A stretch of 64,000 nucleotides of DNA from a virus (IMGVR_UViG_3300047160_036265), one strand, 5' to 3'; counted from the stretch's first letter, positions 24,683-62,749 are shown. Numbers and translations are program-made. The notes: generated by a model not told the origin, from the letters alone.

Positions 24683-25861
24683 TTAAGCCAAAACTTCGGT
24701 GACAACGCCCGATCCGATGGTTTTCCCACCCTCACGGATGGCGAAGTGGCTGCCCACTTCCAGGGCGATGGGCTTCTCCAGCAGAACCTCCAGGGTCGCG
24801 TTGTCGCCCGGCAGGATCATTTCGATGGGCGGCACCAGCTTCATCTCCCCGGTCACGTCCGTGGTACGGAAGAAGAACTGCGGCTTGTAGCCGTCCATGA
24901 ACGGCGTGTGCCGCCCGCCCTCTTCCTTGCTCAAGACGTAGACTTCGGACAGGAACTTGGTCTGGGGCTTGATCGTCCGTGGGGCTGCAAGCACCTGGCC
25001 CCGCTCGATCTCGTCGTTCTTGACCCCTCGCAGGAGCAAGCCGACGTTCTGGCCGGCGACCGCCTCATCAAGCGGTTGCTTGAACGCCTCGACGCTGACC
25101 ACCACGACCTCGCGCATCTCGCCCAGGCCCAGGATTTCCACCTTGCCGCCTGGCCGGATGCTGCCCTGCTCGATCTTGCCCGTCGCCACGGTGCCCCGAC
25201 CGACAATCGAGTGTACGCCTTCGACGTACATCAGGAAGGGGCGGTCCATCTTGCGCACCGGGTCCGGGATGTACGAGTCCAGGGCTTCCAGCAACTCGTT
25301 GATGCAGCGGGTGGCGTCCGGGTCGGTCGGATCGTCCAGAGCGCCCTTGGCGTTGCCACGGACCACCGGCGTCTTGTCGCCGTCGAATCCGAACTTCGTC
25401 AGAAGCTCCCTGGTTTCCATCTCGACCAGTTCGATGATTTCGGGGTCGTTGACCAGATCGACCTTGTTGATGAACACCACGATGTCAGGCACACCGACCT
25501 GACGGGCCAGCAGAATATGCTCCTTGGTCTGCGGCATCGGGCCGTCCGCAGCCGACAGCAGCAAGATCGCCCCGTCCATCTGCGCCGCACCCGTAATCAT
25601 GTTCTTCACATAATCGGCGTGTCCGGGGCAATCGACGTGGGCGTAGTGCCGCTTGGCGGTTTCGTACTGGACGTGGCTGGTGATGATGGTGACGGTTTTA
25701 TTTTCGTCACGCACCGTGCCACCCTTGGCGATGTCCTTGTAGCTTTTGACTTTCGCCAAGCCCTTCTTGGCCTGAACCGCCAGGATCGCAGCGGTCAGGG
25801 TCGTCTTCCCGTGGTCGATGTGACCAATCGTTCCGACGTTGACGTGAATCTTCTCCGACAT
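24683..25861 (-). CDS. tuf: translation elongation factor Tu
   Basis: [17 protein letters not shown] (G1), [49 protein letters not shown] (G3), NKVD (G4); full-length 392-aa EF-Tu with domains 2 and 3. Confidence 0.9.
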
Positions 25862-25973
25862 CTAACACTCCCTGGTTGCCTACAGCAACCTATTAGGGGT
25901 TTCGGCACCCTTCCGCCCAATCGTTTGATCTTTTTACCACAACGAGTGAAGCCAGAGCGGTTGGGAACCAAAG

Positions 25974-26044
25974 AGCCACCCCTGGGAATCGGACCCAGGT
26001 TTTCGCCTTACGAGAGCGACGTATTACCACTATACGAGGGTGGC
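25974..26044 (-). tRNA. tRNA-Thr(CGU)
   Basis: Acceptor GCCACCC/GGGUGGC, anticodon arm UCGCU-CUCGUAA-GGCGA, T-loop GGUCCGAUUCC. Confidence 0.65.
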
Positions 26045-26048
26045 AAAG

Positions 26049-26121
26049 TCGGGGCGGCGGGAGTTGAACCCGCAGCTTCCAGTACCCCATACTGGCGGCT
26101 TACCATCAAGCCTTCGCCCCG
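26049..26121 (-). tRNA. tRNA-Pro(GGG)
   Basis: Acceptor CGGGGCG/CGCCCCG, D-arm GGCU-UGAUGGUA-AGCC, anticodon arm CCAGU-AUGGGGU-ACUGG, T-arm GCGGG-UUCAACU-CCCGC. Confidence 0.6.
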
Positions 26122-26126
26122 ATTAG

Positions 26127-26200
26127 CAGGTGCGGCAGGAGTTGAACCTGCAACCATCCGCTTTGGAGACGGACGCTCTGCCGGGTTGAGCTACGCACCT
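26127..26200 (-). tRNA. tRNA-Trp(CCA)
   Basis: Acceptor AGGUGCG/CGCACCU, D-arm GCUC-AACCCGGCA-GAGC, anticodon arm UCCGU-CUCCAAA-GCGGA, T-arm GCAGG-UUCAACU-CCUGC. Confidence 0.7.
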
Positions 26201-26625
26201 AGAAGATAACGATACCAGCCGAGAGCCTTGGCTGTCCGTTTTCGATGACAGTTTGAACAGCGCACTTCACATTTGGCGATTTCGTCTAAGACCTCGCTCC
26301 AAGGACTTCCATGTGTCACCAGATATGAAACCGCCGCCCGCTTCTCGCCACGCACATGATCGCATTCCAAGGTGACTGGATCGCTTTCGCCGCAGTCAAT
26401 ACACGGATGCTCCAACAGATAGGCCCAATACTTCAGGCCATTTTCGACTGCTTTTTTTCTGGCTGACGCCTTAACCTTGTTGCGACGACCTTCATCCTCA
26501 TGATACATGGTCGTCCAATAAAGACGGCGACAACCTCGGCAAACCCATCTTCGACCTGTGGGGGTTTTCTCGTATTCCTCAAGGGACTTGGGGGTGCCGC
26601 ATTTCTTGCATATTCGAGTTTCCAT
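26191..26625 (-). CDS. HNH endonuclease
   Basis: CKKCG..CRGC Zn ribbon followed by ECDHVRGEK..CEVRCSNCHRKRT (HNH/His-Me finger); abuts the tRNA cluster. Confidence 0.55.
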   Translation of the reverse strand: METRICKKCGTPKSLEEYEKTPTGRRWVCRGCRRLYWTTMYHEDEGRRNKVKASARKKAVENGLKYWAYLLEHPCIDCGESDPVTLECDHVRGEKRAAVSYLVTHGSPWSEVLDEIAKCEVRCSNCHRKRTAKALGWYRYLLGA

Positions 26626-26663
26626 ACCCTATTATAGTGGTGCAAGCGGCAAAAATTACACCA

Positions 26664-26870
26664 CTATTGCCTGGGCATGAAGCCCAGGTATCCCTCGCCC
26701 CCACAGGCATCGCAGACGCCTGCGGGGGCATCATATTTCTTGGTCTGCCAGTTGTACATGCCCTCCTCCTGCTGGCCGAAGCCGCCGCAGCGCTCGCACA
26801 AGAACCGCCGGGCCTCGATCTTGCCGGTCGTTTCCCATTGCTGGAGCAGGGCTGGAGTAATCTCGATCAT
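26664..26870 (-). CDS. hypothetical Zn-ribbon protein
   Basis: CERCGGFG..CDACGGEG cysteine pairs. Confidence 0.4.
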   Translation of the reverse strand: MIEITPALLQQWETTGKIEARRFLCERCGGFGQQEEGMYNWQTKKYDAPAGVCDACGGEGYLGFMPRQ

Positions 26871-27166
26871 GACTTCAAACGGAACCCCAACATGGCGAAT
26901 GCCTCGCGCTGGCTCTTGGCCTCGCCCTGGGTGGAGGGCGACTTGATGCGGTCGGCCAGGCTGTTACGCCAGGCAAACCCGTGCGCCGTCTTGGTGACTT
27001 CTCCGTAATAGGTGCCGTCCTTGAAAATCTTCTGCGTCTTGCCTTCCTCCCGGACTTCGATGGACATGGAAACCTCGTTACTGGTCATCAATGCTGCGAT
27101 ACCCTGGGCATCGCCAGCCGTGGAAACACTCAAGCAGCAAGCCAGGCCGCAGACGCAAATTTCCAA
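26867..27166 (-). CDS. hypothetical protein
   Basis: 99-aa ORF with a hydrophobic N-terminus. Confidence 0.4.
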   Translation of the reverse strand: MEICVCGLACCLSVSTAGDAQGIAALMTSNEVSMSIEVREEGKTQKIFKDGTYYGEVTKTAHGFAWRNSLADRIKSPSTQGEAKSQREAFAMLGFRLKS

Positions 27167-27291
27167 ACTCGCGTCGGGGGATTTTCATGAGGTATTGGTC
27201 CGGTTCGCCGGTTTGCGGGCTTACCCAGGCCACATAGACAAATTTTGGCCCGATCTTCATGACTTGGTGCATTTGTCTGCCCCTCAATCAG

Positions 27292-27364
27292 TGCGGCATA
27301 CGGGAATTGAACCCGTCCCCTCACGTTGGCAACGTGATATACTCAGCCAATATACGAATGCCGC
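27292..27364 (-). tRNA. tRNA-Gly(GCC)
   Basis: Acceptor GCGGCAU/AUGCCGC, anticodon loop UUGCCAA, T-arm GACGGGUUCAAUUCCCGUA; a near-identical copy lies at 31540-31612. Confidence 0.7.
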
Positions 27365-27420
27365 AGTTCGGCAGGAGAAAAAATCGCTTAGAGTTGGCTT
27401 TAGCATTTGTGATCGGCTTG

Positions 27421-33812: not shown

Positions 33813-34396
33813 ACACGAGTCTCACTCTCGTTCACCGGCCCAGGTTCTTTCGCCACCTGAGCCGGGTCGTGCTTCGACCGATTACGGCTCAGGGCTTGCG
33901 GGGGTATTATCCCCACAACGACGTTCGGCGGCGGGCTTGCTACCCGTCGCGCACGTCGGGCGCTGTGGCTGATGCCACTGCGCCTGTTTGCCGGTAATCT
34001 GCACGAAGTACGACACGTTCATTGTCTCCTTTACCGGCGTGACCCCTTTGGTCACTACCGGCTGGAGCCGAGTTGCCTCGGCCTTGCAAGTCTCGCTGCG
34101 GGAACCACTCCCGCTATGTACTAGATACCTGAGCCGCCAAAACGGTCAGGATTTTTTCGGAAAAAACAGGTGAGGCCCTTTCGCGCCGCCCACTCTTTCG
34201 AGTTGCCCTAGCTCCTTTCGGAGACGGGGCCTTTCGCCTACGTCGCCCCGTTTTGAGCGGGTTCGACTTCGGCGTGGTGTCGGCTTGCGATTAGCGGGCC
34301 TCACCTGTTTCTACGGCATCGGTTTGTTTTTTTCCTGAGCCTCGGTCTATCGTTTCCATAGCCTTGGCCGACAGGTTTTACCTCTGCCGCAGAAGT
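33813..34396 (-). ncRNA. large structured noncoding region, candidate ncRNA (identity unknown)
   Basis: About 585 nt with no ORF over 60 aa, many UUCG/GNRA-type hairpins (cctttcgg, ctcctttcggag, gacttcggcg), and a long-range pair aaaacaggtgaggccc (about 34160) with gggcctcacctgtt (about 34297). Confidence 0.3.
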
Positions 34397-34466
34397 TGCC
34401 GGGGCTGGAATTGCACCAGCGTCTTCAGGTTATGAGCCTGATAAGGTAACTACTCCTCCACCCGGC
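34397..34466 (-). tRNA. tRNA-Met(CAU) (or Ile2), G55-type T-loop
   Basis: Acceptor GCCGGGU/CCCCGGC, anticodon arm UCAGG-CUCAUAA-CCUGA, T-arm GCUGG-UGCAAUU-CCAGC. Confidence 0.55.
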
Positions 34467-34559
34467 GATCAGTATGGCTGTTTCCAGCCGTCTATCGTAT
34501 AGTAGTCTACCACCCCCGATTTTGTCAACACCTTTTTGAGTTTTTTCCAGATTCTTTTT

Positions 34560-36383
34560 TCAGGCCCGCCAGCCCTCAATCTTCGTGACGGTGAAGGACT
34601 CGCCCTGGCGGTGGCCTTCTCCTTCCACCCCGTCCCAAGCATCATACGCCAGCAGCCCCCGGCACGTCAAGTCCAAATAATGGCCGGTCTTGAACCCGAT
34701 GGTCAAAAAGGTGATCTCCCGCCCGCCAACCGTGTGGTGCCGCCCCGTGGCAATCAACCCCCGGAATCGTCTCCCGTCGAAGTAGCAATTTGGCATAAAC
34801 CTATTACTGATCCAGTAGTTGCGCTTACGGTACTGATGCCAGCCGTCGCCCTGGGTCTTGTCCGGCTTGCTGTTGGTGAGACGGTCGCCCTCCAGGTGCC
34901 AGAATCCGCCCTGGCCGAAGTTTTCCAGCTTCAGGCCCTCGTACTTGGCCTCCTGAACGTGGACCCAGGGCCGGTACATGCTGGCGGCGTGGTTGAGGGC
35001 GGCGAGCCAGAACTTCTGCCGCTGGCGGGTCTTTTCGTAGGCCAACGCCCAGACCAGATAGCCGTAGGCGGTCGCGTGGGCCTTGCAAAAGCTGTAGAGG
35101 GCGTAGTAGGACAACTCCTTGACGATCTTGGGCCAGTCCGGGAGATACTGGATGCGGACGGCGAAATCCTTGATGGTGTTCTCGTCCTCCTTGGCGAAAC
35201 CCCGGCGGTAAACCTCGGCCTCACTCTCGGAGCAGATCAGCAACTCCCGAATTAGGTTGATCCCGTCCTCATCAAAGACGAGATGCCCCTTGGTGGAGCG
35301 GGTTTGCCGCCAGGTTTCCAGGGCATCGAGCTTTCTGCCGTCAGCAGATGGCACGGGCCGAATCAGGGCCAGGGCGGTAATGATGTCGGAGCGGCAGCGG
35401 ACGCTCAGTGCCCCGCACAGCTTTCGCTGGGCCGGGGATTCGGCAAAGGTCACGCCCCAGGTGTCGCCCTCATTAAAGAGGCGCACCGTGTCGTCGTCCT
35501 CTTCCGGGTAGTCGAGCAAGGGGCGGGTAGCCAATGCGGTCCACTGCGCCAGGCCCCGGTTGCAGAGCAGGTCGATCTTGTGGAGGCCGGCGGCTTCTAC
35601 CTCGTCCTTGTCCAGATGGATATGGTCGTCTTTTATTTTCAGATCGGGAGGCACATGGTCATCGAATATTACGATGCCGCCGCAGTGCTGGGCATTGAGG
35701 CGAACTGTTCCTTCCAGTTCTCCGGCACGCCGCAAGATGGCTTCGGCCTTGTCGCCAGCAATCTTCTCCAGGTCGAAGCCACGGGGCAGGAAGTGATGAA
35801 AGCCAGCTTCACGGAGAGCCTGGCGGATGGCGGAATCCCGGCGGTAGCGAATCTTGGTGGAGATGCGGGCGACACGCCCAGGGTACTTTTCCTTGACCCG
35901 CTCGATCACTTCATCCCGGCGGTTATAAGGGAAGTCGATGTCGATGTCGGGCAAATCCTGGCGGCGCTCGTGCATGAAGCGGGCGAGGCAGAAACCGTGC
36001 TGGATGGGGTCGAAATCGGTGATACCCATGAGGTAGCAGACCAAGCTGCTGCCCGCCGACCCACGGGTGATATGCGGGATGTCATCGGCCAGGTCGAGTA
36101 TTTCCCGGACCTGGGAGAAGACATTTGCAAAACCGAATCGCTGGATCAACTCCAGTTCATGCTTTAGCCGACTTTCGTATTCAGGACCGGGCGGGAGTCG
36201 GCGGCGGAACGGCAACATGAGCCGGACTCCATTTTCACTGGCTGTTCTTCCAGAACTTCCGGGCGTGATGGACCTTTGCCAGCGCCTTGCCCACGTCCGC
36301 AAGGGCCTTGGCCTCATCGGGCTTGGCCCAGGCGAACGGCTTCTTATTCGGGGTTTCCTCGTACTCCCTTTGCAGGTACTCAT
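34560..36383 (-). CDS. dnaE: DNA polymerase III alpha (DnaE)-like catalytic fragment lacking the PHP domain
   Basis: GSAGSSLVCYLMGITDFDP, LPDIDIDFPYNRRDEVIERVKEKYG, HCGGIVIF match DnaE palm/fingers; the N-terminal 80 aa are Ser/Arg/Pro-rich instead of a PHP domain, and the C-terminus stops after the fingers. Confidence 0.65.
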   Translation of the reverse strand: MSTCKGSTRKPRIRSRSPGPSPMRPRPLRTWARRWQRSITPGSSGRTASENGVRLMLPFRRRLPPGPEYESRLKHELELIQRFGFANVFSQVREILDLADDIPHITRGSAGSSLVCYLMGITDFDPIQHGFCLARFMHERRQDLPDIDIDFPYNRRDEVIERVKEKYPGRVARISTKIRYRRDSAIRQALREAGFHHFLPRGFDLEKIAGDKAEAILRRAGELEGTVRLNAQHCGGIVIFDDHVPPDLKIKDDHIHLDKDEVEAAGLHKIDLLCNRGLAQWTALATRPLLDYPEEDDDTVRLFNEGDTWGVTFAESPAQRKLCGALSVRCRSDIITALALIRPVPSADGRKLDALETWRQTRSTKGHLVFDEDGINLIRELLICSESEAEVYRRGFAKEDENTIKDFAVRIQYLPDWPKIVKELSYYALYSFCKAHATAYGYLVWALAYEKTRQRQKFWLAALNHAASMYRPWVHVQEAKYEGLKLENFGQGGFWHLEGDRLTNSKPDKTQGDGWHQYRKRNYWISNRFMPNCYFDGRRFRGLIATGRHHTVGGREITFLTIGFKTGHYLDLTCRGLLAYDAWDGVEGEGHRQGESFTVTKIEGWRA

Positions 36384-37066
36384 CCACCCACTGCTTGTAG
36401 CTTTTCATCTTGCATCGCCTTCAGGTCTTTCTCGACCTGCTTCTTGGTATAGATGCTTTTCTGGCCGGCTACCCGTTTCCGCAGGTGCAGCTTGGCCCAT
36501 TTGACGGCATCCTTATACTCCTTGCGATGCCAGTGAATTAACGCCATACGGTAGCGGGCGTCATTGAGGATGGACCCCGCCTTGGAGTAGCCCTCGCCGC
36601 AAGGATCGACGGTCGCCATGTAGCGGAGGCCAAATTTCAACATTTGCCGGAAGACAATCAGGGCCACGTCCAGCGCCCATTTGATGCTCTTCTCTTCCTT
36701 GGCCTGCCGCCGGCCCCACATATCGAGGGCGGTCGCGTAATACCACATGGACAGCGGGCATTCGGGGGTGATGTCCACGGCACGCCACGCCCACCGCACC
36801 GCCAGGTCGTATCTGTATTGTTCGTAGTAACAGCAGGAGAGACAGGCCATGAGCCAGTGGCTCTTGGGGTGTTTGCGGAGGAACTTGCGGATGACTCGGA
36901 TGGCTTCCTGATACTCGTCGTCCCGGATGAGACGGCTTACCAGGGCGCTGTCATAGTGCGGTTGGTCCTCGTAGAACATGGTGTCATCGGAGTCCTCCCC
37001 GGCACCCCAGGGAGGAACCCCGTAGACATATTCCTCAGCCTTGTTCTCCGATGATGCCTTCTTCAT
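36380..37066 (-). CDS. TPR-like repeat protein
   Basis: Repeated W/Y-rich helical hairpins (AIRVIRKFLRKHP..WLMACLSCCYYEQYRYDLAVRWAWRAV..WYYATALDMWG). Confidence 0.45.
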   Translation of the reverse strand: MKKASSENKAEEYVYGVPPWGAGEDSDDTMFYEDQPHYDSALVSRLIRDDEYQEAIRVIRKFLRKHPKSHWLMACLSCCYYEQYRYDLAVRWAWRAVDITPECPLSMWYYATALDMWGRRQAKEEKSIKWALDVALIVFRQMLKFGLRYMATVDPCGEGYSKAGSILNDARYRMALIHWHRKEYKDAVKWAKLHLRKRVAGQKSIYTKKQVEKDLKAMQDEKLQAVGG

Positions 37067-37322
37067 CCCGCACCTGCGCCTTCAGCCCAGCTTCGCCCAG
37101 GTCTTTGTAGGTCATGCACTCCTCGCCGGGGTAGGTGATCTGGATGTTTCGCTCGTCCACCCGCAGCAGGCGGACCCGCTTGCCGTTGGCCATCGTCCAC
37201 GACATCTTCCAGAAGCCACCCTCGATGAACTTCTCCAGGGCCTCTTCGCATTTTTCAAAATAGCGAAGCTCACCCGTGTCGTTGCCCGCCTCGTCCTGTG
37301 CCCGCAGTTGGTAATCGCCCAT
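37035..37322 (-). CDS. hypothetical protein
   Basis: 95-aa ORF. Confidence 0.4.
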   Translation of the reverse strand: MGDYQLRAQDEAGNDTGELRYFEKCEEALEKFIEGGFWKMSWTMANGKRVRLLRVDERNIQITYPGEECMTYKDLGEAGLKAQVRDEEGIIGEQG

Positions 37323-37500
37323 CTTGCCCTCGTCGGTTTACAGCCCACAGCGCTCCTACCCCAATTATAGCGGCGACCGCCGCCGCAATAACCAGGGCGT
37401 TCCATCCGATGAAATAGAAGCCAATCCCTAGCAAAACGCTGAGAACTATAAACGCGAGGACATATTGACTGGCGATGGCCTGGCCCATTTGACGCTCGAA
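37270..37500 (-). CDS. possible small membrane protein (start uncertain)
   Basis: C-terminal part of a 166-aa frame: Zn-ribbon-like CVKCHQ..CAEC then two TM helices. The upstream part overlaps the RRM gene in another frame through the Gly-codon-rich stretch. Confidence 0.25.
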   Translation of the reverse strand, partial: FERQMGQAIASQYVLAFIVLSVLLGIGFYFIGWNALVIAAAVAAIIGVGALWAVNRRGQDGRLPTAGTGRGGQRHG

Positions 37501-37597
37501 TGCCTGGAGCCGCTTACGCTTCTCCAGGCATTCGGCGCAGATCGAGGCACCGCAATAAACGGTGACGGCTTCGCGCTGGTGGCACTTGACGCAGGGG

Positions 37598-37927
37598 TTA
37601 GTACCCGCCACGGCGACCCCCGCCCCCGGAGCGACGACCACCGCCGCCGCCGCCCCCACCGCCCCCGCCGCCACGGTCTTCACGAGGCCGGGCCTCATTG
37701 ACCGTGAGGGTACGGCCATCCACCTGGGTGCCGTTGAGGCCGCTGATGGCGGCGGACGCCTCGGAGTCACTGGTCATTTCCACGAAGCCGAAGCCCTTGG
37801 ACTTGCCAGTATCACGGTCCATGATGACCTGGGCGGACTGGACCGTGCCGTACTCCGCAAAGGTGTTTCGCAGGTCGGCGTCTGTGGTTCCATACGACAG
37901 GTTGCCGACATACAGTTTCTTACCCAC
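37598..37927 (-). CDS. RRM-domain glycine-rich RNA-binding protein
   Basis: RNP2 KLYVGNL and RNP1 KGFGFVEM with spacing typical of cyanobacterial/plant glycine-rich RBPs; C-terminal GGGGGGGGGGGGGRRSGGGGRRGGY. Confidence 0.7.
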   Translation of the reverse strand: MGKKLYVGNLSYGTTDADLRNTFAEYGTVQSAQVIMDRDTGKSKGFGFVEMTSDSEASAAISGLNGTQVDGRTLTVNEARPREDRGGGGGGGGGGGGRRSGGGGRRGGY

Positions 37928-37956
37928 TCTCAGTCTCCTTCATTTTGAGGTTTCGA

Positions 37957-38583
37957 TCACCTAACAACAGCCTTGCTGTTATATGCCTCCTCTTCCTCCA
38001 CCATCCGGTCGATCATCTCGATCACACGTTTGCGGGGAACGCCGACGCGAAGCATGGCATGGCACATCAACTCGGTTGCCGTCCGCCACGGAAGCCACCC
38101 ATCGGTTTCGCAACCCTGGTGGCCATTGTAGGTCTTGGCGGCGGTTTCCAGATAATGGCGCAAACACTGCCCATCATCCTTTTGGAAATTGTACGGTTCG
38201 GTTCGCTTATCTGTAAAGCAAATCCAGGGCATTTTCTTGTTCTTGTCGCTGGGGCCGATAACATAAAAATGCTTCACGACCCACTTGCACCGCTGGCGAA
38301 TCTCGGCGTCTGGATTATGGCGTACCTCCCATTCTAATTGCGGTACGATCTTGAGGCCGTCTTTCCCCGTCACCTTCTTCTTCAGCTTGAGTGTCGCGTC
38401 CTCGCGCACCTTGAAGCTATCATGGCCGGTGAGCTTGATGAGCTTGAGAGTGTGCTGGTCGGCGGGCGGATTTAACAGGGCGACCCACAACAATACGGAC
38501 GCAAAGGCTTCCACGATCTCTCCTCCATGAAAAAAGGCAGCCGGGGCTGTGGGTTGCCTTCCCCGCCACAGGGTCGGCATTTT
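37957..38583 (-). CDS. hypothetical secreted/membrane protein
   Basis: Start set at MPTLWRG... downstream of rpsL; hydrophobic VEAFASVLLWVALL segment. Confidence 0.4.
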   Translation of the reverse strand, partial: KMPTLWRGRQPTAPAAFFHGGEIVEAFASVLLWVALLNPPADQHTLKLIKLTGHDSFKVREDATLKLKKKVTGKDGLKIVPQLEWEVRHNPDAEIRQRCKWVVKHFYVIGPSDKNKKMPWICFTDKRTEPYNFQKDDGQCLRHYLETAAKTYNGHQGCETDGWLPWRTATELMCHAMLRVGVPRKRVIEMIDRMVEEEEAYNSKAVVR

Positions 38584-38626
38584 ACAGTCTCCCCGGCTGC
38601 CTTGCTCTCCAATTGGGAAGGCGGCT

Positions 38627-39001
38627 CTACTTGCTCTCCTTCTTGGCTCCATATTTTGAGCGGGCTTGTTTACGGTCGGAAACCTGGGCGGCGTCCCGGT
38701 TGCCACGGATAATGTGGTACTTGACGCCTGGCAGGTCACGGACGCGACCACCCCGGATCAGGACAATGGAGTGTTCCTGAAGGTTGTGGCCCTCGCCAGG
38801 AATATAGGCGGTGACTTCGAGGCCGTTGGAGAGGCGCACACGGGCCACCTTCCGCTGTGCCGAGTTGGGCTTCTTCGGCGTGCGGATGCCGGTGAACGTG
38901 ATGACGCCCTTCAGTTGCGGACGGCCCTGAAGGGAACGCACTTTGTTCTGCCGCTTCTGAGGGACACGGGGCTTGCGAACAAGCTGATTGATGGTCGGCA
39001 T
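38627..39001 (-). CDS. rpsL: ribosomal protein uS12 (S12)
   Basis: [80 protein letters not shown] is near-identical in pattern to bacterial RpsL. Confidence 0.85.
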
Positions 39002-39517: not shown

Positions 39518-39704
39518 TCTTATTTCCCTGCGACTGGCCCCTCTCTGCGGGTCAAGTCAGGGGCATGAAACCGTTTCACCTGTTTGAATAACAGGCTTAT
39601 CCAGAGATTGTCAGTCGCCGGTCCCAGCCGAGTCCCTTCAGGCGAACCCGTTGGGACACTAGGCTGGTTTTGTGGCCCCCGGCGAACCAGGGGCTTTTTG
39701 GGAG

Positions 39705-39775
39705 GAAGTGATGCTGGAATCGAACCAGCTTTTCTCCGTTATAAGCGGAGTGTATTACCAGTATACTAATCACTG
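39705..39775 (-). tRNA. tRNA-Ile(UAU)? #2
   Basis: Acceptor CAGUGAU/AUCACUU (6 of 7), D-arm GUAU-ACUGGUA-AUAC, anticodon arm CUCCG-CUUAUAA-CGGAG, T-arm GCUGG-UUCGAUU-CCAGC. Confidence 0.5.
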
Positions 39776-39860
39776 CCGGCCTTTGGTGTTACCACCACTG
39801 GCGTCACAGGAGTTGCACCTGTAGGCTTGCGCCCGTTACCTCAACTCGGCCAGAGGCCAA

Positions 39861-39888
39861 GGCTGGTTTATCGTCTTAGCCCAGGACG
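39861..39888. repeat. hairpin motif family B copy
   Basis: ggctggtttatcgtcttagcccaggacg. Confidence 0.6.
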
Positions 39889-39986
39889 AGAGTAGAATAA
39901 CGCCCCACTCTCCGGCTTGCCTGTTTGTGGAGTTGGCCACCCCTCTGCGTTTTTACCTGCCGCAGACCAGGCTAGTTCCACCGAAG

Positions 39987-40058
39987 TGTGTCTGGCTCGG
40001 AATCGAACCGCCGCTACCGTCTTATGAGGACGGCGTGCTGCCTTTACACCACAGACAC
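39987..40058 (-). tRNA. tRNA-Met(CAU)-like (weak T-stem)
   Basis: Acceptor GUGUCUG/CAGACAC, D-arm GUGUAAAGGCAGCAC, anticodon arm CCGUC-CUCAUAA-GACGG. Confidence 0.4.
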
Positions 40059-40061
40059 CGG

Positions 40062-40146
40062 GGGTGGATTCTCGTCTTACCCCAGGACGGTGGAGGAGTT
40101 TAACGTCATTCCCAGGACGGGGGTGGTTTATATCTTACCCCAGGAT
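40062..40146. repeat. two hairpin-family-B copies with covarying stems
   Basis: gggtggattctcgtcttaccccaggacgg and gggtggtttatatcttaccccaggatcgg. GGGTGG/TTACCC replaces GGCTGG/TTAGCC, a compensatory change. Confidence 0.55.
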
Positions 40147-40153
40147 CGGTCAG

Positions 40154-40226
40154 TTGCGGGTGGAGGAATCGAACCTCCGTCAATGGCTCATGAGGCCATC
40201 CTGGGGCCACTCCAGTGCAACCCGCA
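40154..40226 (-). tRNA. tRNA-Met(CAU)
   Basis: Acceptor UGCGGGU/ACCCGCA, anticodon arm AUGGC-CUCAUGA-GCCAU, T-arm GGAGG-UUCGAUU-CCUCC. Confidence 0.55.
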
Positions 40227-40227
40227 G

Positions 40228-40422
40228 TCAAAAATCAAAACGATCCAGGCCGCTCTCGGCCTCGATACTAGGGTTCACCGCCTCCTCGGCCACCTGGCTG
40301 TCCATTATCGCCGCCAGGGCGTAATGGCTCATGTGTTCCCGAACCACCTGAACCTGCTGGGGCGTCAACTTGGGATCGCACTGCTCCTGAATGCGGGCGA
40401 TCTCTCGGTCGAGGAAACGCAT
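40228..40422 (-). CDS. hypothetical small protein
   Basis: 64-aa ORF with an AAGGAG Shine-Dalgarno 7 nt upstream. Confidence 0.45.
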   Translation of the reverse strand: MRFLDREIARIQEQCDPKLTPQQVQVVREHMSHYALAAIMDSQVAEEAVNPSIEAESGLDRFDF

Positions 40423-40444
40423 CCTTGCTCCTTGAAAATAAAAG

Positions 40445-40548
40445 TGCGGCGGGATGGATTTGAACCACCGACCTACGGGCTAATAACCCGTTGCTCCTTG
40501 AACACTCGCCCCGAAGGGTAGGTGTTGTCTTCGCTGAGCTACCGCCGC
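40445..40548 (-). tRNA. tRNA with about 28-nt hairpin insertion in the D-loop; anticodon loop UUAUUAG
   Basis: Acceptor GCGGCGG/CCGCCGC, T-arm GGUGG-UUCAAAU-CCAUC; D-stem GCUC/GAGC encloses 39 nt including CCC-UUCG-GGG; anticodon arm ACGGG-UUAUUAG-CCCGU. Confidence 0.45.
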
Positions 40549-40626
40549 ATATCGCCCGCACCGGCTGGCTGTCTGCTAATCCAGCGTTTATCTAATCACC
40601 CCTAGAGCGGAGCCATCCACGGCATT

Positions 40627-40663
40627 CGTGAGAGCTACTTCGCCTGCGATTGCTCGCAAGAGG
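40627..40663. repeat. repeat family C copy (GTGAGA..TCGCCTGCGATTGCTCGCAAGA)
   Basis: cgtgagagctacttcgcctgcgattgctcgcaagagg; related copies at 41481-41534 and 51385-51438. Confidence 0.5.
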
Positions 40664-40858
40664 ATAATCGCCCACGATCAGCCAGTGCATCCCCGCATTC
40701 CAGGCACCAACTTGAGGGCTTTCGCTTCACCGGGGCTTTGACCCCCGCAGCCACGGGCGAGTATCAAGCCCTGTGGCTGGGCTGCTCCTTCCGGCCTGAC
40801 CCGGTGCCACAGGTTTCTGTCCAGACAGCGATTTAACTCAACTGCGCCGGCACAGAAG

Positions 40859-40952
40859 TACGGAGGGATGGAGTTGAACCACCGACCCTTAGTGCGCTGA
40901 CAAGGTTGCCCTCGCCCCGCTTTCCAATGCTCTGCCGTTGAGCTACCTCCGC
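40859..40952 (-). tRNA. tRNA with about 22-nt extra sequence between D- and T-arms; anticodon unresolved
   Basis: Acceptor GCGGAGG/CCUCCGU, D-arm GCUC-AACGGCA-GAGC, T-arm GGUGG-UUCAACU-CCAUC. Confidence 0.4.
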
Positions 40953-50989: not shown

Positions 50990-51440
50990 ATATTCGGGCA
51001 GGGGTCTTTCTTTTGCGTTTGAAGTAACCCTGGCCTGCACCTACCCCCATTATGTATTGAAACCGGAGAAATATTCGGGCAGGGGCTTTCGTTGTGATTG
51101 AAGTAACCCTGACCTGCACCTTCCGGTTATGTTCTCGAATACGAGGGCGGGAGAAATAGTCGCTGCGAGTGTTTTTCAAAACCATTTTCTGAAGTAACCC
51201 GCAACTGCACCGTCCCGCCAAGTACCCCCGCCAGGAATTGAACCCGGCCTTCAACGTCCGAAGCGTTGCGTGCGATGCCGACACACTCCGGGGGCAAGAA
51301 TCTCTGGAGATATAGACGACCAGGGGCTTTTCGACATTAGTGGTGTTGAAGTAACCCTAGCCTGCACCTTCCAGAGAGTATTGGGGCGTGAGAAGTAGCT
51401 CGCCTACGATTTCTCGCAAGAACCCTCTCGCTCACGCCGA
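50990..51440. repeat. tandem array of four repeat-family-A units (about 85 bp each) with two embedded tRNAs and one repeat-C copy; candidate Y-RNA-like or tRNA-derived small RNA array next to rsr
   Basis: GAAGTAACCC-N4-CTGCACC at 51021, 51100, 51191 and 51348, each preceded by the GG(A/C)GAAATA(T/G)TCG..GGG..TTTC half; sits directly downstream (on the gene strand) of the Ro60-like gene. Confidence 0.55.
51223..51295 (-). tRNA. tRNA-Arg(UCG)
   Basis: Acceptor GCCCCCG/CGGGGGU, D-arm GUGUGUCGGCAUCGCAC, anticodon arm CAACG-CUUCGGA-CGUUG, T-arm GCCGGGUUCAAUUCCUGGC. Confidence 0.6.
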
Positions 51441-51441
51441 G

Positions 51442-51513
51442 TACCCCGTGCGGGAATTGAACCTGCTCTTTTACCTTCGGAGGGTAACGTGCTGTCCGGC
51501 ACACTCACGGGGT
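51442..51513 (-). tRNA. tRNA-Arg(CCG)
   Basis: Acceptor ACCCCGU/ACGGGGU, D-arm GUGUGCCGGACAGCAC, anticodon arm UUACC-CUCCGAA-GGUAA, T-arm GCAGG-UUCAAUU-CCCGC. Confidence 0.6.
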
Positions 51514-56105: not shown

Positions 56106-57320
56106 CTACCGAGTGACGTAGACCGACGCCTTCCCCTCCATGTTGCTGTCCTGCACCTGCCAGCCCTGGGCAACGATCTGATCCCGCACCGCATCGGCCT
56201 CGGCCCACTTCCGTTCGTCCCGTAGCGCAGCCCGCCGTGCGGCCAGTTCCTTTATGTCCTGCGGCACTTCATAATGTTCGACCTTGAATCCCAGCACGTC
56301 CGCCATCATCTTCGACGGCTCCCGGTGCAACTCGGCCAGGGCCACCGGCGTATTCAGGTCTTCGTCCATCGCCTCGATAAAGCCCTTGGTCATTCCCTCG
56401 GCGGGGGCGTTCAGAAGTTTATTGCGCAGGCTGCGCCACTGCAAATAGCACTGGTGGAAGCCGTACTGGTCGAGCGGCTGGCGATAATGGGCCTGAAGAA
56501 TCCAAAATCGCAGCATGTTCGGGTCGATCTGCTGCGCCCGCAGGTCGCGCAAATAAATAGCGTTGCCCTCGGACTTGCCCATCTTCTTGCCACGATTTTC
56601 AACAAAACCGTTGTGCAGCCAAATGGCGGCGAGCGGCTTGCCAATCAGCGATTCGCTAATAGCGATCTCGTTCTCATGGTGGGGGAATATCAGGTCGCAG
56701 CCACCGCAGTGAATATCGACGCTGCCGCCCAGCAACTCCTTGATAAAGACGGCGCACTCGGTATGCCAGCCTGGCCGACCCGCCACGAACATCTTCTTGT
56801 CCTCCTGGTTATTCTTCCAGAGGTAGAAGTCCTCGCAGGTCGTGTGGCCGGACAACTGGCCGTAGTTTTTGAAATTCTGACCGTGGAAGCGCACTCCATC
56901 CGCAACTTCGTAGGCCAGGCCCTTGACCAGCATCTCATTGACCCAGCCGGCCATCGCCCAGAAATACTTGGTCACACGGGGGTAGGCGTCAGCCCGCTGG
57001 ACGTTGAGCCAGTCGAAGTCCTCGAAATAAGAATCAATGTACTTGTCGCCCACCTGCTCGCAGGTGCAATGGTCCTGGCGGGCACGCTCGATGATCTTGT
57101 CGTCAATGTCCGTGAAGTTCTGGACGTACTTCACGGGGCGACCACGAAACTCCAGCCACCGACGCAGCACGTCCCAGGTGATGTACGACCGGGCATGGCC
57201 AATATGGCAGTAGTCATACGGTGTTACACCGCAGGCGTAAACCTGGAGCGCCCCATTGAGGATGCCGATATTGGGCAGGAAGTCAAGTTGCTTGGTCAGC
57301 GTGTTATAAAGCCGGATCAT
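56106..57320 (-). CDS. cysS: cysteinyl-tRNA synthetase
   Basis: YACGVTPYDYCHIGHARS (HIGH), DIHCGGCDLIFPHHENEIA, KMGKSEGN (KMSKS), FIEAMDEDLNTPVAL match CysS throughout; 404 aa. Confidence 0.85.
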   Translation of the reverse strand: MIRLYNTLTKQLDFLPNIGILNGALQVYACGVTPYDYCHIGHARSYITWDVLRRWLEFRGRPVKYVQNFTDIDDKIIERARQDHCTCEQVGDKYIDSYFEDFDWLNVQRADAYPRVTKYFWAMAGWVNEMLVKGLAYEVADGVRFHGQNFKNYGQLSGHTTCEDFYLWKNNQEDKKMFVAGRPGWHTECAVFIKELLGGSVDIHCGGCDLIFPHHENEIAISESLIGKPLAAIWLHNGFVENRGKKMGKSEGNAIYLRDLRAQQIDPNMLRFWILQAHYRQPLDQYGFHQCYLQWRSLRNKLLNAPAEGMTKGFIEAMDEDLNTPVALAELHREPSKMMADVLGFKVEHYEVPQDIKELAARRAALRDERKWAEADAVRDQIVAQGWQVQDSNMEGKASVYVTR

Positions 57321-58205: not shown

Positions 58206-60281
58206 TCACAGCATCCTCTTCAGGTCGTCCAGGGAAAGCTGCGGAATGCCCAATTCCTGGGCCTTCTGCTGCTTGGAACCGGCGTCCGTGCCGACCACAA
58301 CGTAGTCGGTCTTCTTGGACACGGAGCCGCCGCACTTGCCGCCCAGGTCTTCCACGGCCTTCTGCCAGTGGTCCTTGCCCTCCGGGAAGCCGCCGGTGAA
58401 CACAAACGTCTTCCCGGTCAACTTGCCGGTCTTGGGCAGCACCGGCTCGACGTGCTGGAGCAGGTCATCGACCAGCCGCCCGTGCCGGCGGAACCAGTCG
58501 TAGAGAATCTGGGCAGTCTTCTCGCCCACTTCCTCCACGTCCTCCAACTGCTGCACCGTGGCGGTGCGAATATAGTCGAGGCTGCGGAAGTGACTTTCCA
58601 GCGCCCGCCCGGCGCTCTTGCCTGCCGTGGGGATGCCCAGGCTGGCGAGGAACTGCCACAGCGGAACCTTGTGCTTCTGCTTCGCCGCCTTCTCGATGGC
58701 GTCCGACAACGGCTGCTTCCCCTTGATCTTGTCCGGGGCGTCGATCATGTGGATACGAGCCACGACAAGGAACTGCGAGCGAAACTCCTTCTTGGTGTTG
58801 TGCGGGTCTTCGCCATCCAGCTTGATAAGGTCCGCCACCTGCAAGGTGTAGAAGTCCGCCGGCCCCTTGACCAGCTTGGCCTCATATAATTTGCCCACCG
58901 TCGCGTCCGACAGACCCTTGACGCCGAAGGTGGTCAGGTAATGGCACAGGCCCGCCACCGCCCGCTCCCCACAATAGTCGTTGGGGCAGAACAGCGATTC
59001 CTTGTTGTCGTCGCCGGTGCGAACACTGAGCGGATAGGCACAGGTCGGGCAGTTCTTGGGCCAGGGGAAGGTGGTCTGGCCCCGGACGACCTTGTGGCAC
59101 TTGGGGATGATCTTCCCTGACTTGATGACTTCGATCTCGGTGCCGACACCGATCTTGTTCTCGTTGATATATCCGTAGTTGTGGCCCGTGCAGCAAGTGA
59201 CACTGGTGCCGGCCAACTGGACCGGATTTTCAAAAATCAAAACCGGGGTCACATGGCCGGTCCTGCCGACGTTCAACTCGAACGCCTTGATACGGGCGAT
59301 AGCGATTTCCTCGGAGAACTTCCAGGCGATCTTGCCCTTGGGGTTGCCGTTGGGGGAATTGCCGTGGGTGCCAAGCTGCTCCTGGTCCTCCAACTCCGAC
59401 ACGGACACCACCACGCCGTCCACTTCGTAGTCCAGGGTCGGGGCCAGCTTCTCCATCATGGCCAGGTCTTCGTAGCGGAAAGGGCGAACCTGGACATAGG
59501 GAATGCCCAGGGTCTTGGCGCACCACTTGGCCCGCTCGATCTCGTTCTTGTAAGGCGGGTTGGCGAGGCCGAAGATGGAGTAAGCGCTGAAGGACAGCTT
59601 GCGGTCCTTGGTGATGGTGGGGTCGGTGAACTGGCGGATGCTGCCGGTGGCGTAGTTGCGTGGGTTGGCGAAGGTCTTCTCACCCCTGGAGGCAAGCTCG
59701 GCGTTCAACTTTTCAAAAACGCTCTTCTTGCAGACGATCTCGCCCCGGATGCAGCAGGAAATACTGATGGGCAGGGTGGTAGGCACGCCCTCGACGTACT
59801 GGATATTTTCCGTCACGTCCTCGCCGTTGATGCCGTCACGAGGCCGTAGGCCGGCGCGAATCAGCTTGCCGTGCTGATAATAGATGGCGACGGCCACGCC
59901 GTCCCACTTGAATGCCTGGACATATTGCCGGCCCCGGCGCTTCTCGTCATAGGTCAGAGCGCTGTCGCAGTTGCCCAGCCACTCGTTCAGGGCCTCCTCG
60001 CGCTCCTCCAGCGGCCCGATGGCCTTGGAGATGCTGGTCATGGGCGGATAGTGCTTGACCTTTTTGGCCGCACCGTCGAAGTCCGCCGATGAAGGCTTCT
60101 TCAACTCCTTGGAGTCGGGGCGAATCGTGGCCAACCGCTTCACCAGCAGGTCATATTCCGGGTCTGCGACCACCACCTTGGTGTCGGGGTGGATGCAGGG
60201 TTCGCCCTGCTCGTAGAGGTTGTCCAGGTGACGCTTGATGCGCTCCAGGTCGTTCGCTTCTTGGGCCAGGTCAACGGTCAT
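58206..60281 (-). CDS. ligA: NAD-dependent DNA ligase
   Basis: Adenylation motif FKWDG (KxDG), OB fold, Zn finger CPTC..CPNDYC, HhH repeats, and a C-terminal BRCT (KTFVFTGGF..GGSVSKKTDYVVVG); 691 aa. Confidence 0.85.
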   Translation of the reverse strand: MTVDLAQEANDLERIKRHLDNLYEQGEPCIHPDTKVVVADPEYDLLVKRLATIRPDSKELKKPSSADFDGAAKKVKHYPPMTSISKAIGPLEEREEALNEWLGNCDSALTYDEKRRGRQYVQAFKWDGVAVAIYYQHGKLIRAGLRPRDGINGEDVTENIQYVEGVPTTLPISISCCIRGEIVCKKSVFEKLNAELASRGEKTFANPRNYATGSIRQFTDPTITKDRKLSFSAYSIFGLANPPYKNEIERAKWCAKTLGIPYVQVRPFRYEDLAMMEKLAPTLDYEVDGVVVSVSELEDQEQLGTHGNSPNGNPKGKIAWKFSEEIAIARIKAFELNVGRTGHVTPVLIFENPVQLAGTSVTCCTGHNYGYINENKIGVGTEIEVIKSGKIIPKCHKVVRGQTTFPWPKNCPTCAYPLSVRTGDDNKESLFCPNDYCGERAVAGLCHYLTTFGVKGLSDATVGKLYEAKLVKGPADFYTLQVADLIKLDGEDPHNTKKEFRSQFLVVARIHMIDAPDKIKGKQPLSDAIEKAAKQKHKVPLWQFLASLGIPTAGKSAGRALESHFRSLDYIRTATVQQLEDVEEVGEKTAQILYDWFRRHGRLVDDLLQHVEPVLPKTGKLTGKTFVFTGGFPEGKDHWQKAVEDLGGKCGGSVSKKTDYVVVGTDAGSKQQKAQELGIPQLSLDDLKRML

Positions 60282-60768
60282 CGTCTTCTCCCACGGGTTT
60301 TAGTTTCAAGCCCAGGGCCTTCGCCCTTTTTTCAATTTGCCGGCGGGCTTCCTCGGTTGCCTTATTGCGAGTCACTGCGGCCCACTCGGCAAATTCCTTC
60401 TTCGTTGCTTCCGGCAAGAAGAGTTTCTTCGGCACCCAAAAATGGTGACAACGGCTTCGCGCCGGCGCACCCGGACACCCCTCTGATTCGTCAAAGCTGC
60501 TGACTTCCGCACCCTTCCAGTCGGTGGCGATGGTCAGCATCACATATTCATCGGAGCGGACGAAGGCGGATTTGACATCCATCTTGTGGCCGGTGCCACG
60601 GTAGCAGCGCAGGCGTGGATATTCCTCGTCAAAGTCGTCCGGCCCCAGGGGGCTTTTCCCTGGCTTGTCCAGAACCTCGAACAGCCAACGGACGAACGGC
60701 GATTTCCGCACCGCATCCTTGGCTTCCTTCTCGGCCTGGTTCCATGCCTGGATTTTCTCAAGGATCAT
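60271..60768 (-). CDS. hypothetical protein
   Basis: Start set at MILEKIQAW... Confidence 0.45.
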   Translation of the reverse strand: MILEKIQAWNQAEKEAKDAVRKSPFVRWLFEVLDKPGKSPLGPDDFDEEYPRLRCYRGTGHKMDVKSAFVRSDEYVMLTIATDWKGAEVSSFDESEGCPGAPARSRCHHFWVPKKLFLPEATKKEFAEWAAVTRNKATEEARRQIEKRAKALGLKLKPVGEDDDR

Positions 60769-60769
60769 A

Positions 60770-61183
60770 TTAGTTCCTGCTCTCGCCCCACCGCCGCAGC
60801 TTTTCCGGCCACTTGCTCTGGTCACGGTTGCGCTGGAAATATTCGTGCATCTTCACCAGCAGGTCGCCGTCGATGAGGAAATTGCCGCCCTTCACGAGAT
60901 CATCCAATGCCTCCGGCGTGCGGGCGGGTTCCTCCAGGTAGATCACCCGATACCCCACCTTTTCAGCGCAACGCTCGGTCAGGATGGCGATTTCCCCTTC
61001 ATGGTCGTAGAGGGGATGCTCGACCACAGCCGTCAGGGTGTGCGCCTCCTTGTCCACCTGATAGGCGACCCCGCAGTTGGGAAACACCATCACCCCGCCG
61101 TTGGTCAGCAGGGCGATGGTGTTGCGCATCCAGTTGATCCAGCCCGGTTCAAGAGGCTGGATGCGGTAGGGATTGGTTTTCAT
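60770..61183 (-). CDS. hypothetical protein
   Basis: 137-aa ORF. Confidence 0.45.
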   Translation of the reverse strand: MKTNPYRIQPLEPGWINWMRNTIALLTNGGVMVFPNCGVAYQVDKEAHTLTAVVEHPLYDHEGEIAILTERCAEKVGYRVIYLEEPARTPEALDDLVKGGNFLIDGDLLVKMHEYFQRNRDQSKWPEKLRRWGESRN

Positions 61184-61224
61184 ACTCCTACCATACCGGC
61201 GATGGAGTTGGGTTGTAAAGGAAA

Positions 61225-62747: not shown

Positions 62748-62749
62748 GA

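Follow-up and report, generated by a model that had tools for sequence, protein, structure and literature searches.

What is a small glycine-tailed RNA-binding protein doing in the genome of a virus, and from where was its gene acquired? The question is raised by a gene on the minus strand of a 64,000-nucleotide stretch of DNA from the virus IMGVR_UViG_3300047160_036265 (hereafter the window, by which we mean the whole stretch that was analyzed), the product of which joins a single RNA recognition motif (RRM) to a tail rich in Gly and Arg (table 1). The original prediction, made from the DNA of the window, had treated such proteins as characteristic of cyanobacteria and plants and as rare elsewhere. 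We favor a different hypothesis, which we regard as fairly probable, namely that this is an RRM protein of a bacterial family, captured from a Planctomycetota-type source and kept as an accessory fitness gene, which serves as a chaperone or stabilizer of single-stranded phage RNA. What the domain is, how it folds, how well its motifs are conserved, which relatives are nearest, how selection acts on the gene, and how its synteny and its presence or absence vary were computed here; RNA binding is predicted from motif conservation only, and the targets and the chaperone role are suggested by analogy with relatives that have been studied.

A Canonical RRM Protein of a Bacterial Family

The RRM gene is real and intact, and its product is a member of a known and common bacterial family. 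The Pfam RRM_1 profile (PF00076) matches residues 5-74, corresponding to profile positions 1-69 of 70, with E = 4.9e-24 and 84.4 bits against a cutoff of 20.7, which is far beyond chance, and the NCBIfam equivalog-domain model NF058537 ("Rbp_regulator") matches residues 5-82, or profile positions 2-79 of 79, with E = 8e-36 and 122.2 bits against a curated cutoff of 100. The weak or missing RRM profile match that would have counted against the original prediction was thus not what was seen. The members of the NF058537 family that have been studied are cyanobacterial Rbp1-3 and Bacteroides RbpA-C (10.1101/2021.04.27.441718; PMC9333190; PMC12232666). With a single domain, fewer than 150 amino acids, and a short disordered C-terminus, the RRM protein fits the published description of the family (10.1101/2021.04.27.441718).

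Both of the motifs to which the original prediction had pointed, RNP2 and RNP1, are present, and they agree with the consensus patterns [ILV]-[FY]-[ILV]-x-N-L and [RK]-G-[FY]-[GA]-[FY]-[ILV]-x-[FYM], respectively, aromatic positions included. In an alignment of 40 sequences (A2), residues Y6, V7, G8, N9, and L10 of RNP2 and K44 through M51 of RNP1 are invariant, and the Met that occupies the last RNP1 position is invariant in the bacterial subfamily. The AlphaFold2 model, built on 40 relatives, has the order β1-α1-β2-β3-α2-β4 (strands at residues 3-8, 29-36, 43-51, and 75-78; helices at residues 16-24 and 54-64), and RNP2 and RNP1 sit on the strands at 3-8 and 43-51. The confidence score of the model (pLDDT) is 89-94 over residues 1-80 and falls below 50 in the tail, residues 82-109. 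Thus, the proposed architecture of one RRM followed by a Gly/Arg-rich tail is borne out by Pfam, NF058537, and AlphaFold2 alike. The tail, REDRGGGGGGGGGGGGRRSGGGGRRGGY, contains 18 Gly and 6 Arg in 28 residues; the longest run of Gly is 12, however, rather than the 13 that had been predicted. A Foldseek search of the model against BFVD retrieved RRM proteins at a probability of 1.0, exclusively from giant eukaryotic viruses and baculoviruses. Solved structures of relatives include 2ki2 of Helicobacter pylori, 7qzp of Acinetobacter baumannii, and 7jly, in addition to those of plant and animal Gly-rich RRM proteins.

The N-terminus, MGKKLYVGNL, lines up with the N-termini of dozens of homologues, and the GTG start is therefore well placed. 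A gap of 29 nucleotides (nt) separates the gene from the stop codon of the gene upstream, and at the place of the Shine-Dalgarno sequence the orthologue from a related element (L005) reads GGAGGAG. Searches for a sigma-70-type promoter or an intrinsic terminator specific to the RRM gene found none, the counts of candidates being near those expected from shuffled sequence. Two open reading frames (ORFs) that overlap the gene were rejected as genes: a 166-aa ORF on the minus strand (37270-37770) is mostly an out-of-frame reading through the GC-rich Gly codons, and only its distal part is conserved as the gene downstream, whereas a 128-aa ORF on the plus strand (37562-37948) is an antisense reading through the same codons. 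Defense-system models (PADLOC) match neither the RRM protein nor its neighbors, and on this ground a role in defense or antidefense was set aside.

Affinity with Planctomycetota

A homologue search with the RRM protein returned at least 8000 candidates, all of them significant. The best match (P0001, 91% identical) lies on metagenome contigs whose genes follow one another as in the window and represents the orthologue in L005, and exact copies of the coding sequence (CDS) itself are present on four European Nucleotide Archive (ENA) contigs. After P0001, the matches listed are 74-84% identical, cellular-looking proteins. Among them, the only taxon-named close relatives belong to "Planctomycetes/Planctomycetota bacterium" and "Planctomycetaceae bacterium", two of which (P0006 and P0082) are about 79-80% identical to the RRM protein. 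The tails of these homologues end in ...GGGRRY, similarly to that of the window protein.

A scan of GTDB genomes revealed, among the matches listed, relatives that are 39-69% identical in about 20 phyla. The groups represented include Burkholderiales, Bdellovibrionales, Planctomycetota, Phycisphaerae, and Patescibacteria, as well as Verrucomicrobiota, Bacteroidota, Myxococcota, Acidobacteriota, Chloroflexota, and others. Together with the number of significant homologues and the existence of a bacterial NCBI model, this distribution contradicts the view that the family is a mark of cyanobacteria and plants. The cyanobacterial copies are only 54% (Microcoleus, L070) and 47% (Synechococcaceae, L075) identical to the window protein, compared with about 80% for those of Planctomycetota, and a cyanobacterial or plant origin of the gene was rejected on the strength of this difference. 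The nearest homologue had been expected to hint at a cyanobacterial host if it proved to be a cyanobacterial Rbp; instead, both the RRM protein and the elongation factor Tu (EF-Tu) of the element have their nearest taxon-named relatives in Planctomycetota, the latter being 76-77% identical to "Gemmataceae bacterium" EF-Tu, the only taxon-named matches among those listed. These affinities point to a Planctomycetota host that is Gemmataceae-like. To our knowledge, few phages of Planctomycetota are known. More generally, small Gly-tailed RRM proteins do not mark a cyanobacterial host.

An Accessory Cassette under Purifying Selection

The RRM gene lies in a tight, same-strand block (34560-39001) that runs from S12 through a 207-aa hypothetical protein (h207), RRM, a zinc-ribbon membrane protein (ZnTM), h95, TPR, and h57 to a homologue of the PolIII alpha subunit. 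The synteny of this block is conserved in the related contigs L005, L006, and L167, and the gene order of the L005 type is ThiF ... S12, hypothetical, RRM, Zn-ribbon membrane protein, 97-aa protein, TPR, small protein, PolIII alpha. Neither immediate neighbor of the RRM gene belongs to a recognizable family: h207 has no Pfam, NCBIfam, PHROG, or PADLOC match and its protein search retrieved only three clusters among 5.8 billion proteins, and ZnTM gave no significant match in Pfam, NCBIfam, and PHROG scans. The probable GTG start of ZnTM (37611) overlaps the 3' end of the RRM gene by 14 nt, and in L005 the corresponding ATG lies 1 nt after the RRM stop codon, an arrangement that suggests translational coupling of the two genes. 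As for the distal end of the block, the PolIII alpha ORF has NTPase and finger domains and no recognizable PHP or OB parts, is 83-86% conserved in relatives, and may represent a split or truncated replicase.

Comparison of the window with L005 indicates that the RRM gene is under purifying selection. The RRM domain differs by 16.5 synonymous and 10.5 nonsynonymous changes, giving dN/dS = 0.18 at a dS of about 0.32; the S12 gene gives dN/dS = 0.08 in the same comparison. At the protein level the RRM protein is 91% identical between the two elements, as against 63-69% for h207 and 76% for ZnTM, and its GC content at third codon positions (GC3) of 0.76 is indistinguishable from that of neighboring genes. 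Given the low dN/dS, the higher conservation than that of the flanking genes, and the matched GC3, the gene appears to be a long-resident one, and its product is probably functional.

Searches of metagenomes with the TPR neighbor and of protein databases with h207 brought to three the number of known variants of this clade, one of which has no RRM gene. In this RRM-less variant the order is S12-h182-ZnTM-h96-TPR-PolIII, and the stop codon of h182, the homologue of h207, overlaps the start of ZnTM; its S12 protein is 89% identical and its TPR protein 83% identical. It is represented by contigs L168, L169, L170, and L171, and there is also a 16,993-bp contig in ERZ27275469. ERZ27275469 and ERZ27264556 (ENA) and JGI 3300012971 each contain both the RRM-less variant and the variant of the L005 type, which carries the gene. 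The existence of an RRM-less sister implies that the gene is dispensable to the block and is accessory rather than core. It is a cassette of about 360 nt with its own ribosome-binding site, which was either inserted between h207 and the Zn-ribbon gene or lost from there. A gain, in the ancestor shared by the window and L005 lineages, is favored by two features, namely the overlap of stop and start codons where the RRM gene is absent and the altered N-terminus that the Zn-ribbon protein has where the gene is present, although with three taxa the direction is not provable.

Nature of the Element

The genes of the window lie essentially all on the minus strand, with a GC3 of around 0.76, and the plus-strand ORFs are antisense shadows of them. 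At least 49 tRNA genes are present (48 were found by ARAGORN and 45 by Rfam, four of the latter being outside the ARAGORN list), an extraordinary number, in line with the picture in the original prediction of a phage full of tRNA-like and structured RNA elements. An Rfam scan of the whole 64-kb window at gathering thresholds revealed no RNA families other than tRNAs. Besides the genes listed in table 1, the window encodes a MoxR-type ATPase, and most of the remaining ORFs have no match of any kind. A 669,797-bp contig, from which the window appears to derive, is on record as carrying exact copies of EF-Tu (P0121) and of the product of the gene upstream of RRM (P0241).

In the cellular str operon, S12 is followed by S7, EF-G, and EF-Tu. 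The S12 gene of the window is not followed by these genes, and the EF-Tu of the element is 76-80% identical to any cellular copy. Huge phages are known to encode tRNAs, aminoacyl-tRNA synthetases, EF-Tu, ribosomal proteins, TROVE proteins, and RNA repair enzymes (PMC7162821, PMC7824862). On gene content, the element is most likely a huge phage of about 670 kb. The S12 protein is full-length and of bacterial type (TIGR00981), and there is no PHROG family for S12; the 15 matches to it among phage records seem to be bacterial contaminants or fragments that lack annotation. The lists of ribosomal proteins from huge phages (PMC7162821) and from the Microcystis jumbo phage PhiMa05 (PMC13157829) do not include it.

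RRM Genes in Other Viruses

No PHROG family of any kind matches the RRM protein, and the RegA family gave no match to it in Pfam or PHROGs. RegA is the only RNA binder with an RRM fold that is discussed in a comparative review of jumbo phages (PMC7824862). A tblastn search of 50,697 INPHARED phage records found three records with RRM matches, of which one is a genuine phage, namely PhiMa05/MaAM05, where the match is ORF168 (MW495066.1), a protein of 217 aa with extra sequence. This phage encodes six ribosomal proteins (PMC13157829). We rejected the "Acinetobacter phage MD-2021a" records, which supply the other two, as evidence from phages, as they carry topA, rep, ybaL, rpmG, rpmB, and rpsL and look bacterial; the records concerned (CAKLQH020000005.1, CAKLQF020000005.1, and others) are probably mislabeled Acinetobacter chromosome.

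An alignment-based scan of IMG/VR, by comparison, detected at least 129 contigs with RRM_1 relatives that are 43-71% identical to the window protein, several of them on contigs of 200-480 kb. A single-protein pattern search of IMG/VR retrieved no close relatives, and none of the 129 contigs derives from the phage lineage of the window. No viral copy is closer to another viral copy than it is to cellular ones, a pattern that suggests that viral RRM genes were captured repeatedly and independently. In three unrelated viral lineages (L109, L142, and L146/150/151) the RRM gene lies 42-140 nt from a tRNA gene on the same strand, the distances being 42 nt to a downstream tRNA-Met, 82 nt to an upstream tRNA-Asp, and 140 nt to an upstream tRNA-Arg, and in L092 a tRNA array lies about 4.6 kb from the RRM gene. 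Gene neighborhoods were counted at 80 IMG/VR RRM loci, with 75 bacterial RRM loci as the comparison set.

Proposed Function and Alternatives

We propose that a Planctomycetota-type RRM copy was acquired horizontally and came to be placed, as a cassette, in the translation and tRNA region of a phage-like element. The protein would be made during infection alongside phage S12, EF-Tu, tRNAs, and synthetases. Its β-sheet would present Y6 of RNP2 and F46 and F48 of RNP1, which are predicted to engage 2-4 nucleotides of a single RNA strand by stacking, and the disordered Gly/Arg tail would add nonspecific electrostatic contacts together with an annealing and melting (chaperone) activity. By binding single-stranded stretches of phage transcripts, whether mRNAs or long precursors of tRNA arrays, it may prevent them from folding, stabilize them, and leave them fit for translation or processing. 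Studied relatives offer precedents for such a role. RbpB of Bacteroides is a single-stranded RNA binder whose C-terminus is disordered, as in RNA chaperones (10.1101/2021.04.27.441718; PMC11697453), and chaperone-like, global posttranscriptional, and cold-shock roles have been described for RbpA, RbpB, and RbpC (10.1101/2021.04.27.441718; PMC11697453; PMC13370968). Synechocystis needs Rbp1 to adapt to cold (PMC9333190), its Rbp3 is found with ribosomes and with the 3' ends of mRNAs (PMC12232666), and plant Gly-rich RRM proteins, including that of tobacco, are RNA chaperones whose activity needs both the RRM and the tail (PMC4117745, PMC3134357).

Several observations weigh against this proposal. 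The analysis pointed to no target RNA for the RRM protein, and neither a long 5' untranslated region (UTR) nor a conserved RNA element lies beside its gene, where there is the 29-nt gap and where Rfam detects only tRNAs. Only four of the top matches are taxon-named, and the assignment to Planctomycetota is accordingly indicative, not proven. The third and most diverged variant of the clade, known from four contigs from four samples, does without the gene, the contribution of which may be small or conditional. As regards the element, no capsid, portal, terminase, or other virion or packaging gene was found among the ORFs scanned in the 64-kb window, its lineage is absent from IMG/VR and INPHARED, and it is gene content alone that suggests a phage.

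The last of these points would be expected if the element were a bacterial chromosome or megaplasmid with an ordinary cellular rbp gene. We consider this highly improbable given that at least 49 tRNA genes are scattered among mostly orphan ORFs on a single strand over 64 kb, that S12 stands outside the str-operon order, that EF-Tu is no more than 80% identical to any cellular copy, that most ORFs have no family match, and that the gene content fits huge phages (PMC7162821, PMC7824862). The same low probability applies to a variant of this explanation in which the protein binds single-stranded DNA and serves replication with the adjacent PolIII alpha, although some bacterial RRM proteins have been described as single-stranded DNA binders (H. 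pylori 12RNP2, PDB 2ki2) and the RRM gene shares one block with PolIII alpha. It is also very doubtful that the gene is a neutral passenger, that is, a gene lately taken from a host that plays no part in the phage life cycle. Its presence or absence among close relatives from the same samples and its similarity of about 80% to cellular copies could be read in this way, but dN/dS of 0.18 at a dS of about 0.32 speaks against it, and the frame, the Shine-Dalgarno sequence, and the C-terminal RR..Y are intact in both RRM-carrying lineages. Furthermore, the protein is better conserved than the products of h207 and ZnTM, its GC3 is fully ameliorated, and a divergence of about 20% from any known cellular copy argues against recent capture.

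Two further explanations accept a function in the phage and differ from our proposal in the partner of the protein. According to one, which develops the reasonable suggestion of the original prediction that the protein may act as a chaperone for tRNA-like and structured RNAs, it is a dedicated chaperone or processing cofactor for phage tRNA arrays; on binding to long polycistronic precursors of tRNAs, or to tRNA-like RNAs, it would help them to fold or be processed. The RRM gene does lie between an upstream (39704-40952) and a downstream (25973-34467) tRNA cluster, and the linkage to tRNA genes is tight in three other lineages and looser in L092. At least three tRNAs are found within 10 kb of 6 of the 80 IMG/VR RRM loci, in four lineages, compared with 0 of the 75 bacterial loci, but these counts have no baseline for any large-phage gene, and arrays and host-derived accessory genes may simply gather in the same regions. 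Moreover, 74 of the 80 viral loci have no tRNA cluster nearby, the RRM-less sister keeps the S12-to-PolIII block, and the family members that have been studied bind mRNAs or single-stranded RNA, not tRNAs (PMC12232666; 10.1101/2021.04.27.441718). Such a dedicated role is thus unlikely in our estimation. According to the other, the protein is a ribosome-associated takeover factor that acts with phage S12 (and L7/L12 and EF-Tu) on host ribosomes to favor phage mRNAs. The RRM gene is two genes downstream of S12 in a tight block, an arrangement kept in a relative; Synechocystis Rbp3 coimmunoprecipitates with ribosomes (PMC12232666); and RRM proteins are ribosomal components in chloroplasts (cS22, PDB 5x8p_v, E = 5e-28) and mitochondria (mS86). 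Nevertheless, the sister variant has S12 and the whole block without RRM, which means that S12 does not need it, and S12 and RRM are adjacent at 0 of the 75 bacterial and 0 of the 80 IMG/VR loci. The PDB similarity is generic to RRM, and the Bacteroides RNA-binding proteins are apparently not involved in ribosome assembly (PMC13370968). We therefore have little confidence in a ribosomal role and retain the hypothesis of a chaperone or stabilizer of single-stranded phage RNA.

Comparison with Known RRM Proteins

The closest counterparts of the RRM protein are "RNA-binding protein" entries of Planctomycetota (MBM4089498.1, HET6325001.1), which have one RRM_1 domain of about 80 aa with the same RNP1 and RNP2, 79-80% domain identity, a total length of 100-125 aa, and a Gly/Arg tail ending in RR(x)Y. 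These proteins are uncharacterized and encoded on cellular chromosomes, whereas the window gene is an optional cassette in the S12-to-PolIII block on a phage-like giant element. The cyanobacterial type I Rbps (Synechocystis Rbp1, Anabaena RbpA1) also combine an RRM with a Gly-rich C-terminus and have a nearly identical RNP1 (GFGFVEM/L), and cold adaptation depends on them (PMC9333190), but their identity to the window protein is 47-54%, and the window gene, with its short upstream gap, has no separate regulatory 5' UTR. The best functional analogy is with Bacteroides RbpA, RbpB, and RbpC, each of which is small, consists of one RRM-1 domain with a disordered C-terminus, and has been shown by experiment to bind single-stranded RNA; they differ in being cellular, multicopy, and autoregulated and in having tails that are not poly-Gly/RGG, and Bacteroidota copies are about 50-63% identical.

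More distant are the plant and animal Gly-rich RRM proteins (tobacco GR-RBP1 4c7q, Arabidopsis GRP7, CIRBP 1x5s, and RBM3 7eb1; PDB E values of 1e-14 to 1e-18), which share the RRM and an RGG or Gly-rich tail but are eukaryotic and have longer tails, such that the similarity is at the level of the family and is not orthology. RegA of phage T4 is likewise a small, phage-encoded RNA-binding protein, a translational repressor with an RRM-like fold of beta-alpha-beta type (PMC7824862), but it has no sequence relationship to the window protein and has neither the two RNP motifs nor a Gly tail. The other viral RRM genes, in PhiMa05 (ORF168) and IMG/VR, encode a canonical RRM_1 in large phages, some of which are rich in translation genes or have the gene inside tRNA arrays, although their products are only 45-71% identical to the window protein.

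Identifying the RRM protein adds little, given that it is a typical member of a large family of bacterial proteins that is already curated. Of broader interest is that canonical RRM proteins are nearly absent from curated phage resources yet recurrent in metagenomic viral contigs, sometimes in tRNA arrays, which provides a lead on how large phages manage RNA. It is conceivable, although we think it improbable, that small RRM_1 proteins form a recurrent, independently recruited part of the RNA and translation toolkit of large phages, in the present case as a chaperone for tRNA-array precursors or as a tether of phage mRNAs to ribosomes remodeled by S12, L12, and EF-Tu. This idea draws on the IMG/VR contigs, on the co-occurrence of an RRM gene with six ribosomal protein genes in PhiMa05, and on the linkage to tRNA arrays here and in three or four other lineages. 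If true, it would define a new class of host-takeover factor that lies outside the reviews of jumbo phages. The sister variants that carry and lack the RRM gene and co-occur in the same samples offer a ready comparison for the contribution of the gene.

Other Features of the Window

With about 50 tRNAs, EF-Tu, S12, L7/L12, synthetases, and Ro60 in an apparent genome of about 670 kb, the Planctomycetota-associated element is more remarkable than its RRM gene. The coordinates of its recognizable features are collected in table 1.

Table 1. Features of the RRM gene, its block, and the rest of the window, with RRM genes near tRNA arrays on other viral contigs (positions are those of the window unless a contig is named)
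Feature	Position	Strand	Basis or remark
RRM protein CDS	37598-37927	minus	109 aa; GTG start 37927-37925, TAA stop 37598-37600; ORF list
Shine-Dalgarno of RRM gene, AAGGAG	37935-37940	minus	7 nt upstream of GTG; read from sequence
RNP2 LYVGNL, residues 5-10, strand β1	37898-37915	minus	motif read and AlphaFold2 model
RNP1 KGFGFVEM, residues 44-51, strand β3	37775-37798	minus	motif read and AlphaFold2 model
Disordered Gly/Arg tail, residues 82-109, ending RRGGY	37601-37684	minus	sequence and AlphaFold2 pLDDT
12-Gly run of tail, residues 86-97	37637-37672	minus	residue count
uS12, first recognizable gene of block	38627-39001	minus	Pfam 5.3e-35; TIGR00981 193 bits
h207, 207-aa hypothetical protein, left flank of RRM cassette	37957-38580	minus	gene call in L001
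ZnTM, ~113 aa, CxxC...CxxC zinc ribbon and two hydrophobic helices, right flank	37270-37611	minus	ORF list, orthologue comparison
PolIII alpha homologue, 607 aa	34560-36383	minus	protein scan
LysRS	211-1563	minus	protein scan
Sigma-70-like protein 1	7679-8362	minus	weak region 2/region 4 matches
AlaRS-like fragment, 258 aa	8375-9151	minus	protein scan
L7/L12 (bL12)	10431-10898	minus	protein scan
TrpRS/TyrRS-like protein, 232 aa	21298-21996	minus	protein scan
EF-Tu (P0121)	24683-25861	minus	protein scan
tRNAs found only by Rfam	29738-29809, 30830-30900, 32245-32306, 40859-40952	minus	Rfam
ThiF (E1-like) and prokaryotic JAB (deubiquitinase-like), adjacent	43049-44996	minus	conserved in related elements
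Sigma-70-like protein 2	47105-47668	minus	weak region 2/region 4 matches
Two tRNA-Arg genes directly after Ro60	51441-51513, 51222-51295	minus	tRNA scan
TROVE/Ro60 protein, 672 aa	51570-53588	minus	protein scan
CysRS	56106-57320	minus	protein scan
NAD-dependent DNA ligase	58206-60281	minus	protein scan
Pnkp-like kinase and HAD phosphatase	61225-62382	minus	protein scan
Metallophosphoesterase	63329-63910	minus	protein scan
Viral RRM genes in or beside same-strand tRNA arrays	L109:1821-2200; L142:2606-3011; L146/L150:9786-10231; L092		IMG/VR contigs, GC 29-57%

The partners of bacterial Ro60 are Y RNAs, which resemble tRNAs, but beside the TROVE gene a permissive Rfam scan gave no match to Y RNA or YrlA. 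A 507-aa protein like PHROG 33218 and the PolIII alpha have no relatives in IMG/VR or INPHARED. The two divergent sigma-70-like proteins are in keeping with the absence of recognizable sigma-70 consensus promoters around the RRM block. The adjacent ThiF and JAB proteins possibly constitute a ubiquitin-like conjugation pair, and the cluster of ligase, Pnkp, and metallophosphoesterase (58206-63910), which resembles a set of nucleic-acid repair enzymes, may be a countermeasure to host defenses that cleave tRNAs. Among the tRNAs, isoacceptors are duplicated, with at least six tRNA-Pro, five tRNA-Gln, and four tRNA-Glu, and there are unusual calls on the minus strand (12743-12835, 39704-39775, and 40444-40512), comprising a 93-nt tRNA-Gln(ttg), two tRNA-Ile(tat), and a tRNA-Asn(att).

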